From positions 384,001 to 448,000 of the forward strand of contig OZ219856.1 in the NCBI GenBank assembly GCA_964291395.2: a DNA stretch of 64,000 bases. Reading direction: 5' to 3'. Below are positions 6,534 to 24,198 of this stretch, in pieces (the stretch's first letter is position 1; the number at the start of each line of letters is the position of its first letter). The position numbers and the translations under genes were made by a program. Below the pieces are notes generated by a model. That model was not told the origin of the DNA. It searched no databases and saw only the letters and a program-made list of their open reading frames with translations. The DNA comes from Alphaproteobacteria bacterium (lineage in GTDB: Bacteria; Pseudomonadota; Alphaproteobacteria; UBA2966).

Positions 6534-6821
6534 TCAATTCCCTTTGACCTCGACGAGGACGTTGCGGAATCGGGTGTCGCCGATGTTGCGGGCGTCGTGC
6601 CTGGAGCCTTCCTTGCCGCTCACGACATCTCCCGGCGCCATCGCCACGGTATCCACCGCACCGTCCTCGCGATGGATCTCGAGTTCGGAGCCCTCGACCA
6701 CGTAGTAGAAATAATCGTGGTTGTGCGTGTGCATGCCCGAGGCCTCGCCCGGGTCGAGAATGAGATTCCACACCTTGATCTCGTCATCCTCGAAAATGAC
6801 CTTGGTGCCGATTTCCGCCAT
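6534..6821 (-). CDS. Small cupin-domain protein
   Basis: GTKVIFEDD.IKVW..L.PGE..GMHTH.HDY...HDARN; start moved to ATG 6821 after GGGAGG. Confidence 0.8.
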   Translation of the reverse strand: MAEIGTKVIFEDDEIKVWNLILDPGEASGMHTHNHDYFYYVVEGSELEIHREDGAVDTVAMAPGDVVSGKEGSRHDARNIGDTRFRNVLVEVKGN

Positions 6822-6873
6822 GGGATCCTCCCGCCCTTTGTCCCGATTCCATACGCCATGCGATCCGTTTTGA

Positions 6874-7620
6874 CTAGCGCCCGCCGGCAACGTCCAGGCA
6901 CGTCGCGGTGACGTAGCTTGCCTCGTCGGAGCAGGCCCACACCACGAGATTCGCTACCTCCTCGGGCTCACCCAGCCGCCGCAACGGTGCATCCCGGTTG
7001 ACGGCCTCGGCCGCCACCGCAAGATCGACCTGATTGCCCTCCCAGATCTCCGTGCGCGTCGCTCCCGGCCGTACCGAGACCACGCGGATGCCTTCGGGCC
7101 CCACTTCCTTGGCGAGGCCCAACGTAAATGAATCGAGGGCGCCCTTGCTCGCGGCATAGGGAACGTCGCGCGGCCAGCCTCCGGTCCGGGAGGAAATCGA
7201 CGAGACGTTGACGATCACGCCGCCGCGGCCGCCCAGACGGTTCGACATGCGGCCGATGGCTTCCCTCGAGACGAGCGCCGGTCCGAAGACGTTCACGGCG
7301 AACGTTCTCTTGAACCTTTCCGGTTCGAAATCCGCGATCAACGTGTCGTAGTCGACTCCTGCATTGTTGATCACCGCTCCGGGCGCGCCCAGGCCATCGT
7401 CAAGCTCCTGGAACATGCGCAGGACGTCTTCTTCGACGCCCACGTCGGCCTGTACGGTGATCGCGCGCCGGCCCGCCGCCCGGACGTCCTCCGCGACGGC
7501 CTCAGCCTTGTCCTTCGACCGGCTGTAGTTCACCGCGACGTCCCAACCCCGCCGTCCGGCGAGGCGTGCGGTCGCCGCGCCGATGCCGCGGCTGGCTCCG
7601 GTGATCAGCATGACACTCAT
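6874..7620 (-). CDS. SDR family oxidoreductase
   Basis: TGASRGIG, NNAG, YAASK, RRLGEPEEVA; start MSVMLIT after GGAAAGGA. Confidence 0.9.
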   Translation of the reverse strand: MSVMLITGASRGIGAATARLAGRRGWDVAVNYSRSKDKAEAVAEDVRAAGRRAITVQADVGVEEDVLRMFQELDDGLGAPGAVINNAGVDYDTLIADFEPERFKRTFAVNVFGPALVSREAIGRMSNRLGGRGGVIVNVSSISSRTGGWPRDVPYAASKGALDSFTLGLAKEVGPEGIRVVSVRPGATRTEIWEGNQVDLAVAAEAVNRDAPLRRLGEPEEVANLVVWACSDEASYVTATCLDVAGGR

Positions 7621-7652
7621 GTCGGTCCTTTCCGATCGGCTCTCACGACACG

Positions 7653-8939
7653 TTACGCCCCGGCCGTCGGCAACGTATTCTTGCATACCCGCCCGTCCTG
7701 CATGATCAGGACAATCCGATCCTTGTCCCTGAGGACACGGACGTCCCGGGACGGATCGCCGTCCACGATCAGCAGATCGGCCGCCTTTCCCACCTCCAGC
7801 GTGCCCCACGACCCGCTCCGGCCGATCGCGCGAGCCGAGGTCCGGGTCGCCGCCTGGAGGACCTCCATTGCGGACAGTCCCAGATCCTGCAGATATTCCA
7901 TTTCGGAGACGAGGTCGTAAGGCGGGAAGACGTGCGCCGCGTCGGAGCCGACGCCGATCGGGGTTCCCGCGCGTCGGGCACGCTGGACGGTGTCCGCGCA
8001 GGCTTCGTAGGCCACCCGGCAGCGGTCGATGAACGTCTGCACGTCCGAGGGTTCCGTGCCGCCCGATCGGAGGAACGCCCGAGCGTAATCCTCGTTCACG
8101 CGGAAGTGCAGCCAGGAAATGGTCGGCACGAACACGCAGCCCGCCTCGGCCATCAGATCGAGGCCTTCGTCATCCGCGAATTCCCCGGAGTGAAGGGAGA
8201 TAACGCCGGCGCGGACCGCGTCCTTGATCCCGTCGGCATCGTGCGCGTGCGCGTGCACCGACTTGCCGAACTTCGCTGCTTCCTTCACGGCCGCGTCGAT
8301 CTCCTCGAAGGAAAGGTCCTGCGTGTCCCCGTCGATCCACGGGTTGCCCGGTGTCCCGCTGGCGGTCACCTTGACCCAATCGACACCGGATCGGATCTGC
8401 TTGCGCACGGCGGTCTGCATTTCCTCGGTGCCGTTCACGGCGACGCCGAGATAGGTCTCGTTCTCGTGGTAACCCCAGGCGCCGGTGTGATCTCCGATAC
8501 CGCCCGACCCCGACAGCATCTGGCCCGCCGCCACGACCTTGGGTCCCCTGATCACACCCTTGGCGACCGCATCCCGAACCGCCGTGCCGATGCGGCCCCG
8601 GCAGGCGCCGTCGCCCACCGCCGTGCAACCCGTCTCCAGGACCAGAGCCGCGTTCTCCGCGGCCTTGAGAACGTTGAACTCCAGGCTCTCGTTCATCTGC
8701 TGAAGGATGAGCGCGTATTCCTTGGCGTGATAGGTCAGGTGGGTATGCGCATCGATCAGTCCGGGCATGACCGTGCGGCCCTCCGCGTCGATGACCTCCA
8801 TGTCCGGGGTGGTCTCGAGCGAGGCACCCTCTCCGGACCGGCTGATCCGCCCCTGCTCGACGACCAAGGTCCAGCCGTGGCGGACGTCGATGTCCGTCCC
8901 GTCGACGAGACGTGCATTGACGATGGCGGTCGCCGCCAT
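7653..8939 (-). CDS. Metal-dependent amidohydrolase (Xaa-Pro dipeptidase-like subfamily)
   Basis: MPGLIDAHTH, KVTASG, HAHAH, GSDA, G.LEVGKAADL. Confidence 0.88.
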   Translation of the reverse strand: MAATAIVNARLVDGTDIDVRHGWTLVVEQGRISRSGEGASLETTPDMEVIDAEGRTVMPGLIDAHTHLTYHAKEYALILQQMNESLEFNVLKAAENAALVLETGCTAVGDGACRGRIGTAVRDAVAKGVIRGPKVVAAGQMLSGSGGIGDHTGAWGYHENETYLGVAVNGTEEMQTAVRKQIRSGVDWVKVTASGTPGNPWIDGDTQDLSFEEIDAAVKEAAKFGKSVHAHAHDADGIKDAVRAGVISLHSGEFADDEGLDLMAEAGCVFVPTISWLHFRVNEDYARAFLRSGGTEPSDVQTFIDRCRVAYEACADTVQRARRAGTPIGVGSDAAHVFPPYDLVSEMEYLQDLGLSAMEVLQAATRTSARAIGRSGSWGTLEVGKAADLLIVDGDPSRDVRVLRDKDRIVLIMQDGRVCKNTLPTAGA

Positions 8940-8942
8940 CGG

Positions 8943-10391
8943 CTAGCCCTGCGGCACGCCCGCGTCGTCGAGGAAACTCCGGTCGTTGACCGGATTGGGC
9001 CGGTCGCAGGGCAGGAACTCGCCCCGGCCCGCCTTGCCCACGAACTCTCCGTCATGCCAGATGATTTCGCCGCGAGACACGGTCACTTCGGGCCAGCCCT
9101 GGACGTCGAGTCCGTCATAGGGCGTGTAGTCCATGCCGTCGTGCAGACCGGCGATGGAAATGGTCGTTCGACGATCGGCATCCCACACCGCGAAATCCGC
9201 GTCCGAGCCGACGCCGATCGTGCCCTTGCGCGGGTAGAGGCCATAGATCTTGGCGGGATTCGTGGCGGAGACGGCAACCACCTGGTTGAGGTCGATGCCG
9301 CCCGCCGTCACGGCGCGGGAGAACAGCAGCGGCAGGCGCGTCTCCACCCCGGGCACGCCGTTGGTGATCCGGTTGAACGGCGGGTTCGGTCCGTGCACCA
9401 GCTTGCCCTGGGGGTCGTCATAGCGGAATGCCGCGTGATCCGACGAATAGACGTGGAAAACGCCGGTCTCCATGGCGTGCCATAGGGCGGCTTGGTTCTC
9501 GGGCGTTCCGGGCGGCGGCGCGCAGATGCACTTGGCGCCCTCCATGCCGTCCTTATCGAGATCGTTCTCGTTCAGGAACAGGTACTGGGGACAGGTTTCA
9601 CCGTACACCTTGAGACCGCGGCTCTGCGCCCACCGGATCGTCTCCGCCGCCTCGCCGGTGGCGACATGGACGATCAGGATCGGCACGTCGGCGATCTCGC
9701 CCAGGGTGATCGCCCGGTGCGCCGCCTCGCGTTCCACCGGCGGCTGGTGCGCGATGCCCTTGAACTTCGGCGCCACGCGGCCGCTCTCCAACAGCTTTCC
9801 GGTCAGCCAGACGATGCAGTCCGCGTTCTCGGCGTGAATCATCATCATGGCGCCGTGACGGCGCGCGACCGACATGACTTCCAGGATCTCATGGTCGCTC
9901 AGCATCAGGGCCTTGTAGGTCATGTAGACCTTGATCGAGGTGTAACCCTCCTCGATCAGCGACGGCACTTCCTGGCCGAGCACCTGAGCCGTGGGGTCGG
10001 CGACGATCAGGTGTATGGCGTAGTCGATGACCGCCTTGCCGACGGGCTTCCGGCGATACGCCTCGACGGCGGCGCGCAGCGATTCGCCCTTGATCTGCCG
10101 CGCGAAGGGAATCAGGGTCGTCGTCCCGCCGCAGGCCGCGGAAACCGTGGTCGTGTAGAAGTCCGTGCCGGGCCGGGCGCCCGTCTCCGGGGAGTCCTGC
10201 TCGATGTGAACGTGGGCGTCGATCCCGCCGGGCAGGACGTACTTACCGGTCGCGTCGACGGTTCGCGCAGCATCGCGCAGCCCGTCGCCCAGTGCGGCGA
10301 TCTTGCCGTTCCTGACTCCCACGTCGCAAACCCAGGTGTCGGCGGCCGTCACCACCGTGCCACCCCGGACCACGAGATCGAATTCCGTCAT
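8943..10391 (-). CDS. hydA: Dihydropyrimidinase / D-hydantoinase
   Basis: PGGIDAHVH, KVYMTY (carboxylated Lys), IHAEN, GETCPQYL, SSDHA, GVPGVETR, NPAKIYGLYPRKG; start could be 10391 or 10418. Confidence 0.92.
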   Translation of the reverse strand: MTEFDLVVRGGTVVTAADTWVCDVGVRNGKIAALGDGLRDAARTVDATGKYVLPGGIDAHVHIEQDSPETGARPGTDFYTTTVSAACGGTTTLIPFARQIKGESLRAAVEAYRRKPVGKAVIDYAIHLIVADPTAQVLGQEVPSLIEEGYTSIKVYMTYKALMLSDHEILEVMSVARRHGAMMMIHAENADCIVWLTGKLLESGRVAPKFKGIAHQPPVEREAAHRAITLGEIADVPILIVHVATGEAAETIRWAQSRGLKVYGETCPQYLFLNENDLDKDGMEGAKCICAPPPGTPENQAALWHAMETGVFHVYSSDHAAFRYDDPQGKLVHGPNPPFNRITNGVPGVETRLPLLFSRAVTAGGIDLNQVVAVSATNPAKIYGLYPRKGTIGVGSDADFAVWDADRRTTISIAGLHDGMDYTPYDGLDVQGWPEVTVSRGEIIWHDGEFVGKAGRGEFLPCDRPNPVNDRSFLDDAGVPQG

Positions 10392-10482
10392 GCGCGTCCC
10401 CCCTGTCCTGTCCATCACAGACTACGCTTTGCGGCGGGATGGTGCCAGGCACGGCGCCTGTCACCGAGGGCCTCGAGCCGCA

Positions 10483-10511
10483 TTGACACGCCGTATGCCG
10501 CCTTTCATCGT
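10483..10511 (+). promoter_or_regulatory. Putative sigma70 promoter of the urease-like cluster
   Basis: TTGACA, 17 bp spacer, CATCGT, about 85 bp upstream of ureE. Confidence 0.45.
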
Positions 10512-10595
10512 GACGGAAACGGGTTCGATGCTCGGCTCGTCCCGCGAGAGGGGGTCACCCGCGCATCGATCCGTTCTCAATGGACGGGTGACATC

Positions 10596-11045
10596 ATGCT
10601 CCGCCTGACCGGCATTGTGGGCCACGCGAGCGACGCCGAAATCGCGGACAGATTGCATGACCTCGGTCACCACGGACGCGTCGAGAGCATCGTCCTGAGG
10701 CGTGCCGATACTCTGCGCCATCGACTCAGGATCAATACGGACCGGGGCACCGAATGCGCGATCGCGCTCGCCCGGGACCAGCATCTGTCCCAGGGGGCCG
10801 TCCTTCTTCTCGAGGACGATCGGGCCATCGTCGTGCGCATGGAAGAGGAATCCTGGCTGCCGCTGGAACCGCGGGACGCCGCCACGGCGCTGGAACTCGG
10901 CTATTTCGCAGGCAACCTGCACTGGCGCGTCCGCTTCGACGGTGAAGTCCTCAAGGTGGCCCTGGAAGGTCCCGAGGCCGACTACATCGCCCGCATCGAG
11001 CCGTTTCTCGCCGACGGTCGGGTGAGGCGGGTTTACGATGGCTGA
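10596..11045 (+). CDS. ureE: Urease accessory protein UreE (short, no His-rich tail)
   Basis: RLR..TDRG.E.AI.L.R...L..G..L and ALELGYFAGNLHW (GNxH Ni motif); lies in the 3' part of ORF 9492..11045. Confidence 0.82.
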   Translation: MLRLTGIVGHASDAEIADRLHDLGHHGRVESIVLRRADTLRHRLRINTDRGTECAIALARDQHLSQGAVLLLEDDRAIVVRMEEESWLPLEPRDAATALELGYFAGNLHWRVRFDGEVLKVALEGPEADYIARIEPFLADGRVRRVYDG

Positions 11046-11718
11046 GCCGGCGCGCCTCCTCGCCGCGCTGCAGCACGGCGACAGCTTCTTTCCGAGTGGG
11101 GGCGTTTCCTTCTCCTGGGGCCTCGAATCGCTATGCGCGGAGGGTCTGGTCGCCGACGAGACGGATGTTTGCCGGTTCGTCCAAGGTCAGCTCAGCCATC
11201 GTTGGGCGACGTGCGACCGTCCTGCCTTGATCGCTGCCCATCGGGCAGGAAGGAATCTTGAGAGCGTTGCCCTCGTTGACGCGGAACTCGAGGCCCTGGC
11301 GCTGCCCCAGGGATTGCGCGTCGGCAGCCGGCGCGCCGGTGGGGCGCTCCTCAACGCCCATGAGCGATTGGAGACCCGACACGCCAAAGAGTATCGGCGG
11401 ATGGTCAAGACCGGATCGGCGTTCGGGCATCTCCCGGTGGTGCAGGGACTGGCATGGGGCGCCGTCGGGCTCGCCGAAGAAGTGGCGGCGGCCGTATCGG
11501 CCCACACCCTTTGCGTGGCCCTCCTGGGTGCGGCGCTTCGGCTCGGCGTCATCGGCCATGTGGGGGCGCAGCGGATTCTCGATGACATGCGGCCCGAAAT
11601 GACTCGCTTGCTGTCGTTGCCGGTCCCGCCGCCCGGCAACTTCAGCGCCTGCACCCCGGCCGCCGATATCGCCGTGATGCGCCACGAGACGGCGGAGGTT
11701 CGACTTTTCGCGAATTGA
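11038..11718 (+). CDS. ureF: Urease accessory protein UreF
   Basis: LQHGDSFFPSGG.SFSWGLE, AALRLG.IG...AQ, C-terminal HE....RLFAN. Confidence 0.92.
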   Translation: MAEPARLLAALQHGDSFFPSGGVSFSWGLESLCAEGLVADETDVCRFVQGQLSHRWATCDRPALIAAHRAGRNLESVALVDAELEALALPQGLRVGSRRAGGALLNAHERLETRHAKEYRRMVKTGSAFGHLPVVQGLAWGAVGLAEEVAAAVSAHTLCVALLGAALRLGVIGHVGAQRILDDMRPEMTRLLSLPVPPPGNFSACTPAADIAVMRHETAEVRLFAN

Positions 11719-11745
11719 AATCGACACCAGTCAGGGAGGAAGAGG

Positions 11746-12447
11746 ATGCTTCTGACACCCACCGAGATGGAGCGGTTGACCATCTTCACCGCGGCCGAGC
11801 TCGCGCGCCGGCATCAGGCCAAGGGGCTTCAACTCAATCATCCCGAGGCCGTCGCCATCATCGTCGATGAAATTCTCGAGCGCGCTCGCGAGGGCCAGAG
11901 CGTGGCGGAGCTGATCAGCTTGGGGTCAACCCTGCTCACGACGGATGATGTGCTGCCCGGCGTGGCGGACCTCATGCCGATGATCCAGGTGGAGGCGACC
12001 TTTCCTGACGGGACCAAGCTCGTCACGGTCCACGACCCGATCCGCCCGGGCAAGAAACCTATCGCCAAGAAGGACCGGATCGCGCCAGGTGAAATCATCG
12101 CGGCGGAAGGCGACATCGAGCTCAATGCCGGCCGTCGCACCGCGACGGTCAAGGCCGTGAATACCGGCGATCGGCCGATCCAGGTGGGCAGCCACTACCA
12201 CTTCTTCGAGGTGAACAAGGCGCTGGACTTCGATCGCGCAGCCGCATTCGGCATGCATCTCGACATTCCGGCGGGAACCGCCGTTCGCTTCGAGCCGGGC
12301 GAAAGCAAGGAGGTCACGCTGGTCGCCTTCGGCGGCACCGGCGAGGTCCATGGTCTCAATTCATTGACCGACGGGGCGACGCGCAGCGACAACCGCCGGG
12401 AAGAGGCGCTGCGGCTCGCCCGTGATGCCGGATTCAAGGGAGCCTGA
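11746..12447 (+). CDS. ureA: Fused urease gamma/beta subunit
   Basis: MLLTPTE.ERL...LNHPEA...[14 protein letters not shown] (gamma) joined to [22 protein letters not shown]...[14 protein letters not shown] (beta). Confidence 0.95.
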
Positions 12448-12450
12448 GCC

Positions 12451-14163
12451 ATGGCCACGATCACACGCAAGGAATACGCCGAGCTCTACGGCCCGACCAC
12501 CGGTGACGCGATCCGCCTCGGCGATACCTCGTTGCTCGCCGAAGTCGAGCACGACTTTGCCTTCCCGGGCGACGAATGCCTGCATGGCGGTGGCAAGACG
12601 CTCCGCGACGGGCTAGGTCTCACGGCCGGTTACGACAGCGCCGCGGGGTCGCTCGACATGCTGCTCTGCAATGCCCTGGTGATCGATCCCGTCCTCGGTG
12701 TCGTGAAGGCCGATATCGGCATCAAGGATGGCGTCCTCTCGGGCGTTGGCAAGGCCGGGAACCCGGCGGTGATGGATAACGTCGACCCGGCGCTGGTCTG
12801 CGGCGCGGCGACCACGGTCCGGGACGCCGAAGGCCTCATCGCAACACCGGGCGGCATCGACGTCCACGTCCACTTCGACAGCGCCCAGCTCTGCGAGCAC
12901 GCCATCGCCTCGGGGATCACCACCATGATCGGCGGCTCGCTCGGCCCCATCACCGTGGGCATCGACTGCGGCGGGGCCTGGAACGTTGGCAAGATGCTGC
13001 AGGCCGCCGAGCAGTGGCCGATCAATTTCGGCTTCCTCGGACGCGGCAACTCATCCAAGCCGCGGTCGCTACTCGATCAGATATCCGGCGGTTGCCTCGG
13101 CCTCAAGATCCATGAGGACTGGGGTGCCATGCCGGCGGTGATCGACACCTGCCTGTCGGTCGCCGACGACCTCGACTTCCAGGTTCAACTGCATACGGAC
13201 ACGCTCAACGAGAGCGGATTCCTGGAAGACACGCTGGCCGCGATCAACGGTCGCACCATCCACATGTACCACACCGAGGGAGCGGGCGGCGGCCACGCAC
13301 CCGACATCATCCGCGTGGCGGGAGAGGCCAACTGCCTGCCGTCTTCGACCAATCCCACCAATCCCTACACGGTCAACACCTTCGACGAGCACCTCGACAT
13401 GACGATGGTGTGTCATCACCTGAACCCGGCCATACCCGAGGACGTGGCTTTTGCGGAAAGCCGAATCCGGGCGCAGACCATCGCCGCCGAGGACGTGCTC
13501 CACGATATCGGCGCAATCTCGATGCTGGGCTCCGACAGTCAGGGCATGGGCCGGATCAACGAGGTGATCTGCCGGACCTGGCAGCTCGCCAGTAAGATGA
13601 AGGATCAGCGGGGGCGTTTGGACGAGGAACAGACCCGCATCGGGGACAACGAGCGCATCCGCCGGTATATCGCGAAGTACACCATCAACGCGGCCCGTAC
13701 GTTCGGGATCGATGATCACGTGGGATCTCTGGAACGTGGCAAGCTCGCCGACGTGGTGCTCTGGCGGCCGGGATTCTTCGGCATCAAGCCCGAGCTCGTG
13801 GTCAAGGGCGGTTTCATCGTCTGGGGTGCGATGGGCGACAGCGCCGCGTCGTTGATGACCTGCGAGCCGCTGATGATGCGTCCCCAGTGGGGAGCCTTTG
13901 GCGAGGCCCGCAAGGCGCTGAGCGCGAGCTTCGTCAACCAGGGCGCCGTGGACGCCGGCATCGCCGAGGGGCTCGGACTCAGGAAACGCGTGCTGCCGGC
14001 GCGGGGGACCCGCAAGCTCAACAAGCAGCACATGCTGCGCAACGACGCGTGCCCCGACATTCGCGTCAATCCGCAGACCTTCGACGTCTTCGTCGACGAC
14101 GAGCTGGCGACCTGCGAGCCGGCCTCGACGTTGCCGTTGACGCAGAGATACATGCTGCGATGA
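12451..14163 (+). CDS. ureC: Urease alpha subunit homolog with divergent active-site loop
   Basis: [56 protein letters not shown]. Confidence 0.93.
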
Positions 14164-14795
14164 ACGCCGCCGTCACACAGGACTCTCCCTCGGCTGCCCG
14201 GGTCGGCATCGGCGGGCCCGTCGGGTCGGGCAAGACCGCGCTGCTCGAGCAGTTGATCCCCCGGTTCGAGGCACGGGGCACCGAGATCGCGGTCGTGACC
14301 AACGATCTCGTGACAAAGGAGGACGCGGAGCGGCTACGCCGCAGCGGGTTGATCGCGCCGGACCGCGTCATGGCCGTCGAAGCCGGCGCCTGTCCCCACA
14401 CGGTCATCCGCGAGGACCCCACGCTCAACATCGAGGTCGCGGATCTGTTGGAAGACACGTTCGATCCGCTCGATCTCATCATCATCGAGAGCGGCGGGGA
14501 CAATCTCGCCTCCACGTTCTCCCTGGACCTCGTCGATTACTGGCTGTTCGTGATCGACGTGGCCGGCGGCGACGACATCCCCCGCAAGCGGGGCCCGGGT
14601 GTCGTGCAGAGCGACATCCTGGTGATCAACAAGGCGGACCTCGCACCCTACGTCGGTGTCGATCTCGACCGGATGATCGCCGAGGCCGCCGACGTGCGCT
14701 CGGGCCGTCCCGTGCTCGTGACCAACTGTGCCACCGGCGAGGGAGTCGACGCGGTCGTCGAGCGGCTGGTCCACGACGTGTTGTTCGATGAATAG
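14160..14795 (+). CDS. ureG: Urease accessory GTPase UreG
   Basis: [31 protein letters not shown]. Confidence 0.95.
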
Positions 14796-15660
14796 CATCG
14801 CCCCGCTGCCGCTCGCGGGAGAGGGACAGGGCGAGGGCCCTGGCCGCCTGTCCCTGACGTTTTCCCGTGACGGCGACGGCCGGACCTACTTGGACCGCCA
14901 ATTCGCGGGCTATCCGTTCCACGTCTGCCGGCCGCATTATTTCCCGCACGATGTACCGGGGATGGCAACGCTCTACGTTCAGTCGAGCGCAGGGGGCCTC
15001 TACCAGGAGGATGCGCACGACATCGAGATCGTTGCGAATGACTGGACGCGTGCTCACGTCACGACTCAGGCGTCGACCATCGTGCACGGCATGGAGCGCG
15101 GAGCCGCCGTGCAACGGACGACCGTCACCGCTGGTCCCGGAAGCCACGTGGAAGTGGTTCCGGATCCCCTGATCCTGTTCCCCGCCGCGAGTCTGTCGAC
15201 GACGCTGATGGCTCGCATCCACGATACGGCCACGGCCGTCATCGCGGAAGCGTTCCTGATGCACGACCCGGACTCGGCAGACGCGGCATTCGATTCCTTT
15301 CAGGCCGAAGCGGTCATCGGGGATTGGGACGGTACGACCCTTGCCGTTGACCGTTTTCGTATTTCGGGCCGCGACGTCTTTGCGGCGACGCCCGGAATTA
15401 CCGGGGCAGCGCGGGCGCAGGGCCTGCTCATGATCGTGGGGCGCGGAACGGACCAATCCGGCCTCATCGCAGCTCTGCGCGCAGATCTGGGCGTGCAGGA
15501 AGACGCATTCGGCGGCGTATCCGAATTGCCCAACGGTGCCGGCGTCTCGGTGCGGCTGCTGGCGCCTGACGGAGCCGCGCTCCGCGCCGCCATGCTCGCC
15601 GCCTGGGCGTCGGCCAGTGAGACTCTGACCGGTGTGCGGCCATTGCTGCGGCGCAAGTGA
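14788..15660 (+). CDS. ureD: Urease accessory protein UreD
   Basis: [23 protein letters not shown]; ends LLRRK; overlaps ureG stop. Confidence 0.9.
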
Positions 15661-15751
15661 ACGTGCTCTGCATTGGCGAGAGAATCTGGTGAGGTGCGCG
15701 AGAGATGTGGCGACGTCTTCGGGGATTCATTTGGAAGGTGGATAGGAAGCC

Positions 15752-16525
15752 ATGGAACCAGGCGTGAAGGGATTCGACCTGATCGATCGCGTGGCCGTCA
15801 TAACCGGCGGCAACGGTCGGATGGGGCGTGCCAGTGCCTTGAGGCTGGCGGCCGCCGGAGCCGAAGTGGTGGTCACCGACGTGACGCTCGACGGCGCGCA
15901 GGACATCGTCTCGGAGGTCGGGGAAGCCGGACGAAAAGCCCTTCCTGTGATCATGGTCGTCACCGACGGCGACGCTGTCCGGCTGACCGCCGATCGGATC
16001 GTCGCCGAGTTTGGCTCCGTCGACATCTTGGTCAATGCCGCCGGCGTGACCAAACGCCAACCCGCCGAAGAGTTTCCCGAGGCAGATTGGGACCGGATTA
16101 TCGGCATCAATCTCAAGGGCACCTTCCTGTGCTGCCAGCTTTCGGGCGCCCGATGATCGCTTCGGGCCGCGGCACCATCGTCAACCTGGCCTCGATCGGC
16201 GGGGTCATCGCTCTCCCCAACAGCGTTGCCTATTGTGCCAGCAAGGGCGGCGTCGTTCAGGTGACTCGCACGCTCGCGGTCGAATGGGCGCCGCACGGGG
16301 TGCGGTCAATGCCATTGCGCCGTCGCCTATTGACACGCCGCTCGTCCGAGCCGTGTTGGACGCGCCGAGCCCGAATATCGGCAGCGCATGTTGGAGAACG
16401 TTCCCCTGGGCCGCATGGGCAAGCCCGAGGAAGTCGCCGATGCGGTGCTGTATCCGGCATCCGACGCCTCGGCCCTGGCGACCGGGACCGTCCTGCCGGT
16501 GGATGGCGGCTACATGGCGCGGTAG
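15752..16525 (+). pseudogene. Frameshifted SDR oxidoreductase
   Basis: SDR motifs (TGGNGRMG/VNAAG; NLASI..YCASK; VNAIAP; PLGRMGKPEEVA..VDGG) lie in four successive segments separated by three -1 shifts near 16140, 16305 and 16365. Confidence 0.8.
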
Positions 16526-16603
16526 GCGGTCGATTGTTGACTCGTCTCTGGCTCGGGCTCATCGTGAGACCTCGCCGCGCGAGATGCTGGCCGGGCTGGT
16601 TGC

Positions 16604-19985: not shown

Positions 19986-20396
19986 ATGGCTATCATCGGC
20001 AAGGATACGCCCGTCGGCACCGAACTGCCGGTCTTCGCCCGCCGGTTCCGCAACGAGATGTTCGCCATGGGCGACATCAAGACCATCCATAATGACGATG
20101 CGGCCGCCCAACGGGAGGGCCTGCCCCGCGCCGTTGCCGTCGGCCCACAGGTCGCCGCGCTGATCTTCCGCATGATGCGTTCCTGCTTCGAGGAAGGCTG
20201 GATCGTCGGCGGCAGGGTCGCGCTGACCTTCCGCCGTCCCGTCTGGTCGAACGACTTCGCCACGGCGCACGGCGTGATCAAGGACAAGGAAGTGGAAAGC
20301 GACAAGGTGCGCGTGGTTTGCGACGTCTGGGTCGAGCGCGGCGACGGCGAGAAGGCGATCGTCGGAACCTGCAGCGCCTTGGTGCCGGGCGCGTAA
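19986..20396 (+). CDS. MaoC family dehydratase
   Basis: TIHNDD.AA..EGL..AVA.G hydratase-like motif, L.FRRPV. Confidence 0.78.
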   Translation: MAIIGKDTPVGTELPVFARRFRNEMFAMGDIKTIHNDDAAAQREGLPRAVAVGPQVAALIFRMMRSCFEEGWIVGGRVALTFRRPVWSNDFATAHGVIKDKEVESDKVRVVCDVWVERGDGEKAIVGTCSALVPGA

Positions 20397-20419
20397 GGCG
20401 GCGGACCGGTCGTCTCCGA

Positions 20420-22483
20420 ATGGACATTCACGTCGGCATCGACGTCGGGGGCACGTTCACGGATGTCGCCGTCAATGTGCCGGAGGCAAATCGATTCATT
20501 CATTTCAAGCTGCCCAGCACGCCGGGTGAGCCCGATCGCGCGATCGTCGAGGGTGTCGCCCGGGCACTGGCCGAGAATGATCTGAATGCGCGGGACGTCA
20601 TGCGGCTCTCCCACGGCACCACGGTGGGCACCAACGCCCTGATCCAGCGTCGCTGCGGCCGTGTCGCCGTCGTGACCACGGAAGGCTTCCGCGACTTGAT
20701 CGAGATCGGGCGTCAGGTCCGACCCCGCATGTACGACATTCATCTCGATTACCCATCGCCCATCGTGCCCCGTCAGCTTCGCTTCGAGGTACGTGAGCGG
20801 CGCCGCGCCGATGGGACGGTACACCTCCCCCTCGACGAGGCCGGACTGAGGGATCTGGCCCGCACGTTGGTCGATGCGGAGGTGGAGTGTGTCGTGGTGT
20901 GCTTCCTCAATTCTTACGCTTGGCCGGAACACGAGGAACGGGCCGTGGCGCTTCTGAGAGCGACGCTGCCGCCGGCCGTTCACGTCCTCTCCTCGACGTC
21001 CGTCTATCCGGAATTCCGAGAGTACGAGCGGTTCTCGACCGCAGTCCTCAACGGTGCCCTGCTTACCGTCATGAATGCATACCTGAATCGGTTCACGGTG
21101 GGTCTCGAAGGCATCGGCGTACGGGCTGACCCGAAGGTCAGCCAAAGCGCGGGTGGATTGATGTCGCTCGGGATGGCGCGGCGGCTGCCCATTCGCGCGT
21201 CATTGTCGGGGCCGGCCGCCGGTGTGTCCGGTGCCGCGGTCCGGGCCGCCGCTGCGGGCTTCGAGGATATCATCACGCTCGATGTCGGCGGGACGAGCAC
21301 GGATGTTAGCCTGATGAAGGGTGGAATCCCCGGCGAGGTGTACGAACATGAGATCGCCGGCTTTCCGCTGAGGTTGCCTGCGATCGACGTGAACGCGGTC
21401 GGCGCGGGCGGTGGCTCCATCGCCTGGATCGACTCGGATGACCTGTTGAAGGTAGGTCCCATGAGCGCAGGGGCAGATCCGGGGCCGGCTTGTTATGCGC
21501 TCGGCGGCGGCCAGGCCACGGTGACGGACGCCAATGTTGTGCTGGGGCGCCTCAATGGGGACGCCTTGCTGGGTGGGGGCATGCCCATCGCCAAGCCCCT
21601 TGCTGTCGAGGCGGTTCGGCGATTGGCGGCATGCCTGGATCTGGAATTGGAGGAAACGGCCCTCGGGATCGTCCGGGTGTCGGCGGCAACGGTGGTCAAA
21701 GCCATCCGTGCGATCTCCGTGGAGCGAGGTCACGATCCGTCCGGATTCGCCCTCTATGCCTTCGGCGGCGCGGGTCCCCTGTTCGCCGTTGACGTCGCCC
21801 GCCAGCTCGATATCGCCCGGGTCATCGTCCCGCCGCATCCCGGTATCTTGTGCGCCGAAGGCTTGCTCAACTGCGACATGGCGAGCGATTTCGTGAAATC
21901 GGCGCTGGTGGCCGCGGGCACGGATGCACCGCCCGCCCTGAATTCGGCGCGTAGAGAGCTCCTGGCGCGCTCGGGGAGCTGGCTCGACGAGGAAGGCGTG
22001 CCTCCGGATAGAAGATCACTATCGTGGTCTGTCGATATGCGTTACCGCGGCCAGAACTTCGAGATCGGCGTCGCGAGCGACGGGGAGGAATTCGACGCGG
22101 CGGCCTGCGAATGCCTCGTCCAGGCCTTTCATGCTGCGCACGAGGCCAACTATGGGTTCGCGTCGCCGGACGAGCCCGTGGAATTCGTCAATCTCAAGCT
22201 CAAGGGGATGGCGAACCTCGATCAGCCGGACCCGGCGGTCTGGGTCGTGTCGACCGAAGGCAAGCCTCATGCGTCGCGGGACGTCGTCTTCGGGGGCGCG
22301 GAACGCATCACCGCCCCGCTGTATAGGCGTGAAGAACTGGGACGCGATCAGGTCATCGAGGGGCCGGCGGTGGTTGAGCAGTTCGACTCGACCCTGCTCG
22401 TCTTTCCGGGCGATCACGGCCGGGTCGACGACTGGGGGAACATCGTGATCACGCTCGCGGAGGGTGGCCCGTCATGGAACTGA
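20420..22483 (+). CDS. Hydantoinase A / oxoprolinase family ATP-binding subunit
   Basis: GIDVGGTFTD, HGTTVGTNA, SGPAAG, DVGGTSTD, GAGGGS, SAGADPGPACY. Confidence 0.93.
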   Translation: MDIHVGIDVGGTFTDVAVNVPEANRFIHFKLPSTPGEPDRAIVEGVARALAENDLNARDVMRLSHGTTVGTNALIQRRCGRVAVVTTEGFRDLIEIGRQVRPRMYDIHLDYPSPIVPRQLRFEVRERRRADGTVHLPLDEAGLRDLARTLVDAEVECVVVCFLNSYAWPEHEERAVALLRATLPPAVHVLSSTSVYPEFREYERFSTAVLNGALLTVMNAYLNRFTVGLEGIGVRADPKVSQSAGGLMSLGMARRLPIRASLSGPAAGVSGAAVRAAAAGFEDIITLDVGGTSTDVSLMKGGIPGEVYEHEIAGFPLRLPAIDVNAVGAGGGSIAWIDSDDLLKVGPMSAGADPGPACYALGGGQATVTDANVVLGRLNGDALLGGGMPIAKPLAVEAVRRLAACLDLELEETALGIVRVSAATVVKAIRAISVERGHDPSGFALYAFGGAGPLFAVDVARQLDIARVIVPPHPGILCAEGLLNCDMASDFVKSALVAAGTDAPPALNSARRELLARSGSWLDEEGVPPDRRSLSWSVDMRYRGQNFEIGVASDGEEFDAAACECLVQAFHAAHEANYGFASPDEPVEFVNLKLKGMANLDQPDPAVWVVSTEGKPHASRDVVFGGAERITAPLYRREELGRDQVIEGPAVVEQFDSTLLVFPGDHGRVDDWGNIVITLAEGGPSWN

Positions 22484-24198
22484 CCGCCATCCAGGTCGAG
22501 CTGCTGCGTAACGCGCTCGGCAGCATCGTCGACGAGATGTACGTGGCGCTGATGAAAAGCGCCTACTCGACCAATATCAAGGAGCGCCGCGACCACTCAA
22601 CGGCGATCTTCGACACCAAGGGGCGTGTCGTGGTTCAGGGTGAAAGCCTGCCGCTTCACTTGGCATCCATGCTCGGTCTCGTGGAGGTCGTTCTCGAGCG
22701 GAGCCGCGACGATCCCTTGCGGCCGGGCGACATGATCGTCTCCAACGACCCCTTCGTCGGCCGGGGCTCGCACCTGCCGGACGTGGCCTTTGTGGCGCCG
22801 GTGTTCGTCGGTGAGCGGCTCGCCTGCTTCGTCGCCAACATCGCCCATCACGCGGATATCGGAGGCATGGCCCCTGGCAGCATGGCGGGCGGTATGACGG
22901 AGATCTACCAGGAAGGGTTGCGGATCCCGCCCGTGCGGTTGGTCCGTGCTGGCGAGATCGTCGACGATCTGTTCGATCTCATCCTGCTGAACGTTCGCGT
23001 GCCCGAGGAGCGCCGCGGGGACTATCTGGCGCAGGTTGCCGCCAACCGGCTGGGCGAGCGGCGCTGTCACGAGCTGCTCGAACGCTGGTCCCTGGAACGG
23101 TTCCGGGCCGGAACGGACGCCATCATCGACGCCGTCGCCAAGCGGACCCGCGCCGCCCTAATCGAAGTGCCCGACGGCACCTACACCTTCAACGACGTCA
23201 TGGATGACGACGGTCTCGGCACCCGGGACATTCCCGTTGCCGTGCGCATTGACGTTGTGGGAGACGAGATCCATTTCGATTTCTCGGGATCGGCGCCCCA
23301 GGTGCGCGGCAACATCAACGTCAGCCGGTCCGCGCTCGAAGCAAGCGTGCTCTATGCCGTCAAGGCGCTCGTCGACCCGGACGGACCGACGAACCACGGT
23401 ATGCTCGATGCCATCCACATCGAGGCTCCCGAAGGCTCCGTGGTCAATGCCGTCTTCCCGGCGGCGACGGCGGCGCGTTCCCAGGTCAGCCAGCGCCTGA
23501 TCGACGTCATCCTGGGGGCGCTGGCGCCGGCATTGCCCGACCGGGTGATCGCCGCGGGCAACGGGGCGAACACCCTGGCCACGTTCTCGGGCGATGACGC
23601 CAATGGAAACTTCTACGTCTACATGGAAGCGATGGGCGGCGGAGCGGGTGCCCGCTCCTACAAGGACGGAACCGACGGCGTGCAGGTCCATTCGACCAAC
23701 ACCTCGAACCTGCCGATCGAATCGCTCGAGCGGGAATACCCCATTCTGATCGAACGTTACGAACTGGTGCCGGACACGGGCGGCGCCGGCACATGGCGAG
23801 GGGGACTTGCCCTTCGCCGCGCCTATCGCCCGATCGGCCACGCGGCGGTCTTCAGTGGACAGGGCGAGCGCATTCTGAACAAGCCCTGGGGGCTCTTCGG
23901 CGGCGGCGAGGGAGCGACCGGCTCCTTCCACTTGGTTCACGACGATGGCCGCAGCGAAACGCTCGCCGTCAAGCCGCATACGGTGGAAATACCGCCAGAC
24001 GCCACCCTCTGCATCACGACGCCGGGCGCTGGTGGCTATGGCCCGCCCGAGGGACGCAGCAAGCGCCGCTTGGCCCTGGACGTAGCCAGCGGAAAACTGT
24101 CGCCTGGACGGCTTGAGGAGCAATACGGTTGCGACGTATCTGAATTGCCTGATGTAGTGGATTCCACCGATACTGTTCGCGTCGTTCGGGACGACTAG
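22474..24198 (+). CDS. Hydantoinase B / oxoprolinase family subunit
   Basis: SAYSTNIKERRDHS, NDPF..GSHLPD, HHADIGG..PGS, EGLRIPP, GGAGTWRGG, TPGAGGYG. Confidence 0.93.
   Translation: MELTAIQVELLRNALGSIVDEMYVALMKSAYSTNIKERRDHSTAIFDTKGRVVVQGESLPLHLASMLGLVEVVLERSRDDPLRPGDMIVSNDPFVGRGSHLPDVAFVAPVFVGERLACFVANIAHHADIGGMAPGSMAGGMTEIYQEGLRIPPVRLVRAGEIVDDLFDLILLNVRVPEERRGDYLAQVAANRLGERRCHELLERWSLERFRAGTDAIIDAVAKRTRAALIEVPDGTYTFNDVMDDDGLGTRDIPVAVRIDVVGDEIHFDFSGSAPQVRGNINVSRSALEASVLYAVKALVDPDGPTNHGMLDAIHIEAPEGSVVNAVFPAATAARSQVSQRLIDVILGALAPALPDRVIAAGNGANTLATFSGDDANGNFYVYMEAMGGGAGARSYKDGTDGVQVHSTNTSNLPIESLEREYPILIERYELVPDTGGAGTWRGGLALRRAYRPIGHAAVFSGQGERILNKPWGLFGGGEGATGSFHLVHDDGRSETLAVKPHTVEIPPDATLCITTPGAGGYGPPEGRSKRRLALDVASGKLSPGRLEEQYGCDVSELPDVVDSTDTVRVVRDD

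Follow-up and report, generated by a model that had tools for sequence, protein, structure and literature searches.

Urease is a textbook enzyme, held to be almost absolutely specific for urea. The stretch analysed here (the window) comprises 64,000 nts of the forward strand of contig OZ219856.1, positions 384,001 to 448,000, from the assembly GCA_964291395.2 of an alphaproteobacterium of the GTDB lineage UBA2966, and it carries a complete set of urease genes in the order ureE-F-AB-C-G-D, where ureAB is a fusion of the gamma and beta subunit genes. These genes lie within a self-contained, horizontally mobile cassette at positions 10575-15664 and probably encode a true nickel urease that belongs to a distinct lineage, itself mobile, a reading to which we give a probability of about 75%. 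The nickel dependence of the enzyme, urea as its substrate and its physiological role are predicted from sequence. The six genes are tightly packed, all open reading frames (ORFs) are intact, and stop and start codons overlap. The original prediction had described this set as divergent from genes for a dihydropyrimidinase, a second amidohydrolase, a short-chain dehydrogenase/reductase (SDR) and a cupin, with no urea transporter nearby. This description was borne out, as all the genes are present, intact and in the order given, and no urea transporter was found among the 59 ORFs of the window scanned with Pfam.

Over its full length, UreC scores above the curated urease equivalog and subfamily cut-offs (TIGR01792 and NF009686), and its best solved relatives are the jack bean and Klebsiella aerogenes ureases, which align end to end with about 688 bits. 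Thirteen of the 14 active-site positions checked are kept. These include all the dinickel ligands (His139, His141, Lys219, His248, His274 and Asp362), the catalytic and substrate-binding residues His221, Asp223, Cys321, His322 and Arg338 (His219, Asp221, Cys319-His320 and Arg336 in K. aerogenes), as well as Gly279 and Met366, and the flap motif MVCHHLN is intact. Two features depart from the canonical enzyme. The loop GGGTGPAxGTxATTCTPG is re-sequenced and three residues shorter in UreC (residues 161-175), and Gly365 stands where K. aerogenes has Ala363 and Sporosarcina pasteurii has Ala366. According to a review (PMC7433671), the Ni(2)-bound urea nitrogen donates hydrogen bonds to the backbone carbonyls of Ala170 and Ala366 of S. 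pasteurii; the pocket geometry discussed below is derived from the sequence and from this source. By homology, UreD, UreF, UreG and UreE would deliver two nickel ions to the UreC site that contains the carbamylated Lys219, and the UreAB-UreC enzyme would hydrolyse urea into ammonia and carbamate via the standard bridging-hydroxide mechanism.

A scan of one genome per species identified 80 related loci, with UreC proteins 78-95% identical to that of the window. Their hosts are Alpha-, Beta- and Gammaproteobacteria, a Chloroflexota metagenome-assembled genome (MAG) and a Nakamurella MAG, and include the genera Methylobacterium, Methylorubrum, Methylophaga, Paracoccus and Amorphus. Copies of 77-80% identity are also carried by megaplasmids of Aminobacter, Shinella, Ancylobacter, Methylobacterium and Acinetobacter. 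The SDSQGMGR and short-loop motifs are found in 80 out of 80 loci, and the window copy matches them in these motifs, in the fused ureAB and in gene order. The six ure genes keep the same order and strand in 65 of the 80 loci, most of the remainder being cut by contig ends. Homologues of ureE, ureF and ureAB were detected in 69, 75 and 78 of the loci, respectively (tblastn, at least 40% coverage).

The original prediction had also proposed that a UreC phylogeny could reveal a separate clade, and UreC was indeed found to lie outside the ordinary ureases, in a clade of its own. The tree (FastTree, one alignment, midpoint-rooted, with local supports) contains 121 UreC sequences, namely 81 from the clade, 25 other ureC products from sampled genomes and 15 representatives of 150 listed. 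The representatives are near-full-length, single-stretch rows, fragments having been left aside, and they come from a library clustered at 50% identity, in which ureases fall into few clusters and the clade is not separated. In this tree the clade is monophyletic with a local support of 0.82, or 0.99 with its 70%-identical sister, and it belongs to a larger short-loop superclade (0.98 / 0.999 / 0.86) standing apart from canonical ureases. The other members of the superclade have Gly363 in 14 out of 14 cases.

The broad superclade (L117, L118, L125, L129, L131, L132, L149 and P0005-P0029) consists of urease-alpha homologues 37-70% identical to the window UreC. Near the active site, HEDWG is changed to HEDYG or HEDLG, the second flap His is replaced and some members have Ser or Ala for the flap Cys. 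Their contexts vary, with xanthine-dehydrogenase-like, creatininase, PhyH and HyuB genes, and some are without adjacent ureE, ureF or ureG. As a possible source of new activities, these homologues seem more promising than the window UreC. Two atypical loci were also seen within the clade, L051 (Sneathiellaceae MAG) and L052 (Marinibaculum pumilum), in which ureD is the only ure gene after a ureC 81% identical to that of the window. Their 8-kb flanks gave no homologue of ureAB, ureF or ureG, and the upstream genes of L052 encode a TetR protein and a glycosylase.

The genes accompanying the cassette in other genomes point to urea. By tblastn, with an identity of 30% or more and a coverage of 50% or more, a UrtA-like binding protein is encoded in 39 of the 80 loci and UrtB/C/E-type components of an ATP-binding cassette (ABC) transporter in 28-33. 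At L062, UrtB, UrtC, UrtD and UrtE all score above the urea-transporter equivalog cut-offs, but the binding proteins, at 325-407 bits, stay under theirs of 492.75. On Aminobacter megaplasmids, the cassette lies between urtBCDE and a HupE/UreJ nickel permease gene. In addition, 11 of the 80 loci have a tandem pair of arginase-family genes directly upstream of ureE and co-directional with it, joined in 7 loci by a gene for the nickel GTPase HypB (at least 60% identity). The arginase pair and the ure cassette together look like a module leading from a dimethylguanidine or guanidine hydrolase to urease. The ureohydrolase of L018 shares 68.6% identity with plasmid genes from metformin-degrading Pseudomonas. 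A published study (PMC11399263) describes heteromeric, nickel- and HypAB-dependent enzymes of this family, among them a dimethylguanidine hydrolase that was shown to release dimethylamine and urea and whose genes cluster with urease genes. In four of the five ureohydrolase-urease genomes (completeness unreported), the clade ureC is the sole ureC found, and the fifth has only two further matches of 68%. Hence the urea released by the upstream enzyme would have no other urease to go to in these four genomes. The loci with the arginase-family pair are L007, L008, L018, L026, L031, L036, L037, L040, L046 and L056, with L010 partial; a NitT/TauT-type binding protein is often encoded there, and the hosts are sponge-associated and other uncultured Proteobacteria.

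The source genome (4.16 Mb, 98% complete) has one Urease_alpha match above the cut-off. A second, sub-threshold match of 21.5 bits lies in an unrelated frame of 686 amino acids (aa). A search for a canonical ureC, suggested by the original prediction, was negative in this genome, making the window ureC the only one, and no urea carboxylase was found in the genome. The genome does have genes for a ureohydrolase of the agmatinase family (183.7 bits, cut-off 174.3), a protein of the ureidoglycolate lyase family, several sarcosine oxidases and a NicO-family nickel/cobalt transporter homologue (69 bits, above the Pfam cut-off). Because the ureohydrolase, the ureidoglycolate lyase and the NicO homologue are present, internal sources of urea and a supply of nickel are plausible without a dedicated importer. 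A tblastn search of the genome with two Aminobacter HupE proteins found no homologue, and a search for allantoicase gave no match in this genome, nor in the control genomes. A Creatinase_N protein encoded 4.5 kb to the left of the window was also considered and is not identifiable as a creatinase. In the sponge-associated host bacterium, the enzyme would most likely dispose of or assimilate urea that is made inside the cell or diffuses in, either of which could explain the lack of a urea transporter. Urea is favoured as substrate because of the catalytic residues, the full maturation set, the urea importers and ureohydrolases of related loci and the status of this ureC as the only one in its genome.

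Several observations weigh against this reading. The original prediction had inferred a remodelled pocket, and this part of it holds throughout the lineage, since the shortened Ala170-type loop and the Gly in place of Ala363/366 are found in 80 out of 80 relatives, while the 31 urease sequences of the Protein Data Bank (PDB) with a match to this segment are all of the type with three more residues; accordingly, the short-loop type has no solved structure among them. According to the same review (PMC7433671), the C-beta of Ala366 contacts the Ni(2)-bound water that is displaced by the substrate nitrogen, and its replacement by Gly would therefore remove this contact. Moreover, 48 of the 570 UreC positions distinguish the clade from canonical ureases, in that one residue is found in at least 95% of the clade and another in at least 90% of 20 canonical sequences. 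Many of them lie beside active-site residues, with clusters adjacent to the HxH motif, the loop, Lys217, Asp221, His272 and Ala363, and in the GDPNASIPTPQP segment. A canonical ureC (51-57% identical) is also present in 10 of 10 named clade genomes. Among 301 evenly sampled genomes of the same class, 70 carry a ureC, the canonical ones being 53-58% identical to that of the window, and 10 (the source genome included) have the clade type, of which 5 also have a canonical ureC, 1 has only the 70% sister in addition and 4 have the clade type alone. The retention of both types fits functional divergence. The binding proteins adjacent to the cassette fall under the UrtA cut-off (325-466 against 492.75 bits), and the best UrtA scores in the clade-only genomes G181, G089 and G102, at 445-466 bits, are just below it. 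An aliphatic amidase is encoded in 21 of the 80 loci and an AmiR/ANTAR regulator in 19. Taken with the sub-threshold binding proteins, this suggests that the regulon may respond to amides rather than to urea. The source genome itself has no recognizable urea importer, its best UrtA match reaching 79 bits, and no biochemically characterized member of the clade was found in the literature outside subscription journals. The same literature gave no description of a second, atypical or fused urease lineage, nor of a link between amiE, amiR, ureC and urtA.

Such observations could be accounted for if the lineage were a urease-derived hydrolase with a shifted or widened range, acting on N-methylurea or N,N-dimethylurea, hydroxyurea, formamide or short amides, with urea possibly remaining a substrate. 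Such a shift would arise from the shortening of the Ala170-type loop together with the replacement of Ala by Gly at the Ni(2) side of the pocket. We consider this proposal rather unlikely, despite pocket-adjacent changes that are fixed in all 80 relatives and common to the wider superclade, the co-occurrence with a canonical urease in most carriers, the linked amidases, regulators and binding proteins, and the methylotrophs Methylorubrum, Methylobacterium, Methylophaga and Aminobacter among the carriers. None of the catalytic residues adapted to urea chemistry has been lost, the flap Cys-His-His and His221 being among those retained, and the altered positions act through their backbone carbonyls, which Gly can provide as well. 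In addition, the operon is joined to urea-releasing ureohydrolases in 11 of the 80 loci and is the sole ureC found in 4 of 5 such genomes, and it is the sole urease of a source genome that has urea-forming enzymes. In its broadest form, the proposal would make the whole short-loop lineage a nickel amidohydrolase with a wider pocket, for which N-substituted ureas (methylurea or dimethylurea from methylated guanidines) and small amides such as formamide would be preferred or additional substrates; we regard this as doubtful too. If true, it would explain the co-retention with canonical urease and the wiring of the cassette to the amide-sensing regulators AmiC/AmiR, to amidases and to dimethylguanidine-hydrolase-like enzymes, and the cassette would be the sole entry point for such compounds, and for urea, in the sponge symbiont.

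The original prediction had proposed that the urease homologue may act on a substituted urea or related product of the divergent hydantoinase operon rather than on urea. In the form considered here, the substrate would be a ureido, N-carbamoyl or other product of that operon, and the two operons would be co-regulated through the intergenic region between them. The two operons are back to back, 177-204 bp apart depending on the choice of the hydantoinase start codon, and no urea importer was found in the genome. The junction is kept in related strains of other sponge metagenomes, and it is bridged by contigs from two other sponge metagenome runs (X11, covering 8900-11522, and X14, covering 9517-12954). 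Since these contigs span it, the adjacency is not an assembly artefact. Positions 8900-15700, or close strain variants (~98% identical), were recovered in runs belonging to 15 studies, many of which carry the label sponge metagenome; this is consistent with a widespread sponge-associated population. The hydantoinase gene, ureE/F, ureAB/C, ureG and ureD are matched, with 0-2 differences, by contigs of one sponge metatranscriptome run, a weak hint of ure transcription, as RNA libraries can contain DNA. Comparison with other genomes nevertheless speaks against coupling. Hydantoinase, amidohydrolase and cupin homologues were found in none of the 80 related loci within flanks of about 8 kb (tblastn, with the thresholds given above for the other contexts), so that the conservation of hydantoinase neighbours, which the original prediction had put forward for checking, was not observed. 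For the SDR, the only matches were two distant ones in L004 and L012 (33% and 28% identity), located downstream of ureD at a distance of several kb. In the reverse test, close homologues of the amidohydrolase (49-52%) occurred in only 2 of 300 other genomes of the same class, and neither has hydantoinase or urease genes within 9 kb.

The borders of the cassette give the same picture. A blastn comparison of window positions 1-30000 with the closest relative, L003 (UreC 95% identical), produced a single match, 10575-15664 to L003 6122-11236, with 80% identity over 5124 nts. The similarity starts 21 nts before the ureE start and ends 4 nts past the ureD stop; hence the ure genes form a cassette that was inserted among genes to which it is unrelated. 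The hydantoinase gene is one of four paralogues in the genome. A scan of the divergent intergenic region for sigma-70-like promoters and terminators found no sites, and no regulator or shared motif was found there. Furthermore, carbamoylases belonging to other families cleave N-carbamoyl products, and no urea is released in the process; the contexts conserved elsewhere point to urea rather than to an N-carbamoyl product, which goes against the ureido substrate of the original prediction. The hydantoinase operon thus appears to be a lineage-specific neighbour, adjacent by chance and without a demonstrable functional tie to the urease. The coupling was rejected on these comparative data (80 loci, reverse test and cassette borders) and is considered very unlikely. 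The practical result for the window is therefore negative, as the idea of a hydantoinase-urease pathway has no comparative support, and nothing in the window itself argues for a new activity on the urease scaffold. The cassette might otherwise be a recently acquired passenger that is non-functional or decaying, given its discrete form in an unrelated context and an SDR gene directly downstream that seems frameshifted. We give this almost no credence: none of the six ORFs is interrupted and their start and stop codons overlap, UreC is strongly conserved across phyla, with 255 invariant positions among the 81 clade sequences, and contigs from a transcript library lie on the cassette.

Among known systems, the ureases of K. 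aerogenes (UreABC with UreDEFG, PDB 2KAU/1FWJ) and S. pasteurii (PDB 4UBP) align with UreC over its full length at about 672-688 bits. They share with it the nickel ligands, the carbamylated Lys, His219/221, Asp221/223, the flap Cys-His-His, Arg336/338, Asp360/362 and the four accessory proteins. They differ from the window cassette, in which gamma and beta are fused and the order is E-F-AB-C-G-D, and from its UreC, with a loop shorter by three residues, Gly for Ala363/366, 48 clade-specific positions and a separate branch in the tree. Closer in kind is the cluster of the Aminobacter megaplasmids (pMET1 of strain NyZ550 and p2 of A. niigataensis DMFA1), which consists of an AmiC-like gene, an ANTAR gene, a binding protein gene, urtBCDE, ureE-F-AB-C-G-D and hupE and is annotated as urease by PGAP. 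It belongs to the same lineage, with the same gene order and a UreC 80% identical, and the loop and SDSQGMGR motifs were read in the pMET1 UreC. In contrast, the window cassette is bare, without an adjoining importer, ANTAR regulator or HupE gene, and is the sole urease of its genome. The dimethylguanidine/metformin hydrolase clusters, which have a urease encoded downstream (PMC11399263), resemble the 11 clade loci with a ureohydrolase pair before ureE. The window differs from them in having no such pair, and the single arginase-family gene of its genome is 29% identical to the pair. Finally, Helicobacter pylori UreA/UreB and the Helicobacter mustelae UreA2B2 iron urease (PDB 1E9Z and 3QGA) are two-subunit enzymes with fused gamma and beta, like the window enzyme, and give about 659-666 bits with its UreC. 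Unlike the window UreC, the Helicobacter enzymes carry the long canonical loop. H. mustelae UreA2B2 works without UreDEFG, whereas all four of these proteins are encoded in the window cassette.

The short-loop lineage is widespread, carried on plasmids and strongly conserved, and its hosts include sponge symbionts, methylotrophs and Aminobacter. It alters precisely the substrate contacts of urease while keeping the catalytic machinery. This makes it a natural experiment on the determinants of urease specificity and affinity, and it is of relevance to how the cycling of nitrogen from urea, guanidine and amides is annotated in marine symbionts.

Table. Positions of the ure cassette, its neighbours and the hydantoinase paralogues (window coordinates, except C1 entries, which are in the source genome and are given with their identity to the window hydantoinase)
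Feature	Position	Strand	Basis
ure cassette as DNA-similarity block	10575..15664	+	blastn against closest relative L003
ureE, nickel metallochaperone, 149 aa, without His-rich tail	10596..11045	+	Pfam UreE_N 39.5 bits
ureF, urease accessory protein	11038..11718	+	Pfam UreF 99.6 bits; start overlaps ureE stop
ureAB, fused gamma/beta structural subunit	11746..12447	+	NF009671 358.6 bits (cut-off 243); Urease_gamma and Urease_beta domains
ureC, catalytic alpha subunit, 570 aa, short-loop lineage	12451..14163	+	TIGR01792 823.3 bits (cut-off 680); NF009686 866.2 bits (cut-off 354)
ureG, nickel-insertion GTPase	14160..14795	+	TIGR00101 233.1 bits (cut-off 204.2); ATGA overlap with ureC stop
ureD, urease accessory scaffold protein	14788..15660	+	Pfam UreD 109.4 bits; likely ATG at 14788 overlaps ureG end; ORF open from 14728
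Intergenic region between hydantoinase gene and ureE, divergent	10392..10595	.	only last ~21 nts common to closest relative
Dihydropyrimidinase/D-hydantoinase, neighbour	8943..10391 (ORF to 10418)	-	NF009941 723.3 bits (cut-off 647)
Amidohydrolase-superfamily enzyme, neighbour	7653..8939	-	Amidohydro_1 124.9 bits; best NCBIfam NF051886 252 bits, under cut-off 500
SDR oxidoreductase, neighbour	6874..7620	-	adh_short_C2 169.8 bits
Cupin_2 protein, neighbour	6534..6890	-	Cupin_2 44.3 bits
Hydantoinase paralogue, own genome	C1:1809470-1810867		58%
Hydantoinase paralogue, own genome	C1:864407-865801		55%
Hydantoinase paralogue, own genome	C1:902773-904131		40%

The 64-kb window as a whole is a patchwork of small-molecule catabolic genes. 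The SDR gene directly 3′ of ureD (15753-16526, + strand) can be read through only if the frame is changed at least twice, close to 16145 and to 16300, and is either a pseudogene or affected by sequencing errors. Further downstream, at 20318-24195 on the + strand, a HyuA/HyuB-type pair of ATP-dependent hydantoinase/oxoprolinase genes lies beside MaoC, BKACE and SDR genes, the best matches of the pair being caprolactamase subunits (496 and 290 bits against a cut-off of 1000).

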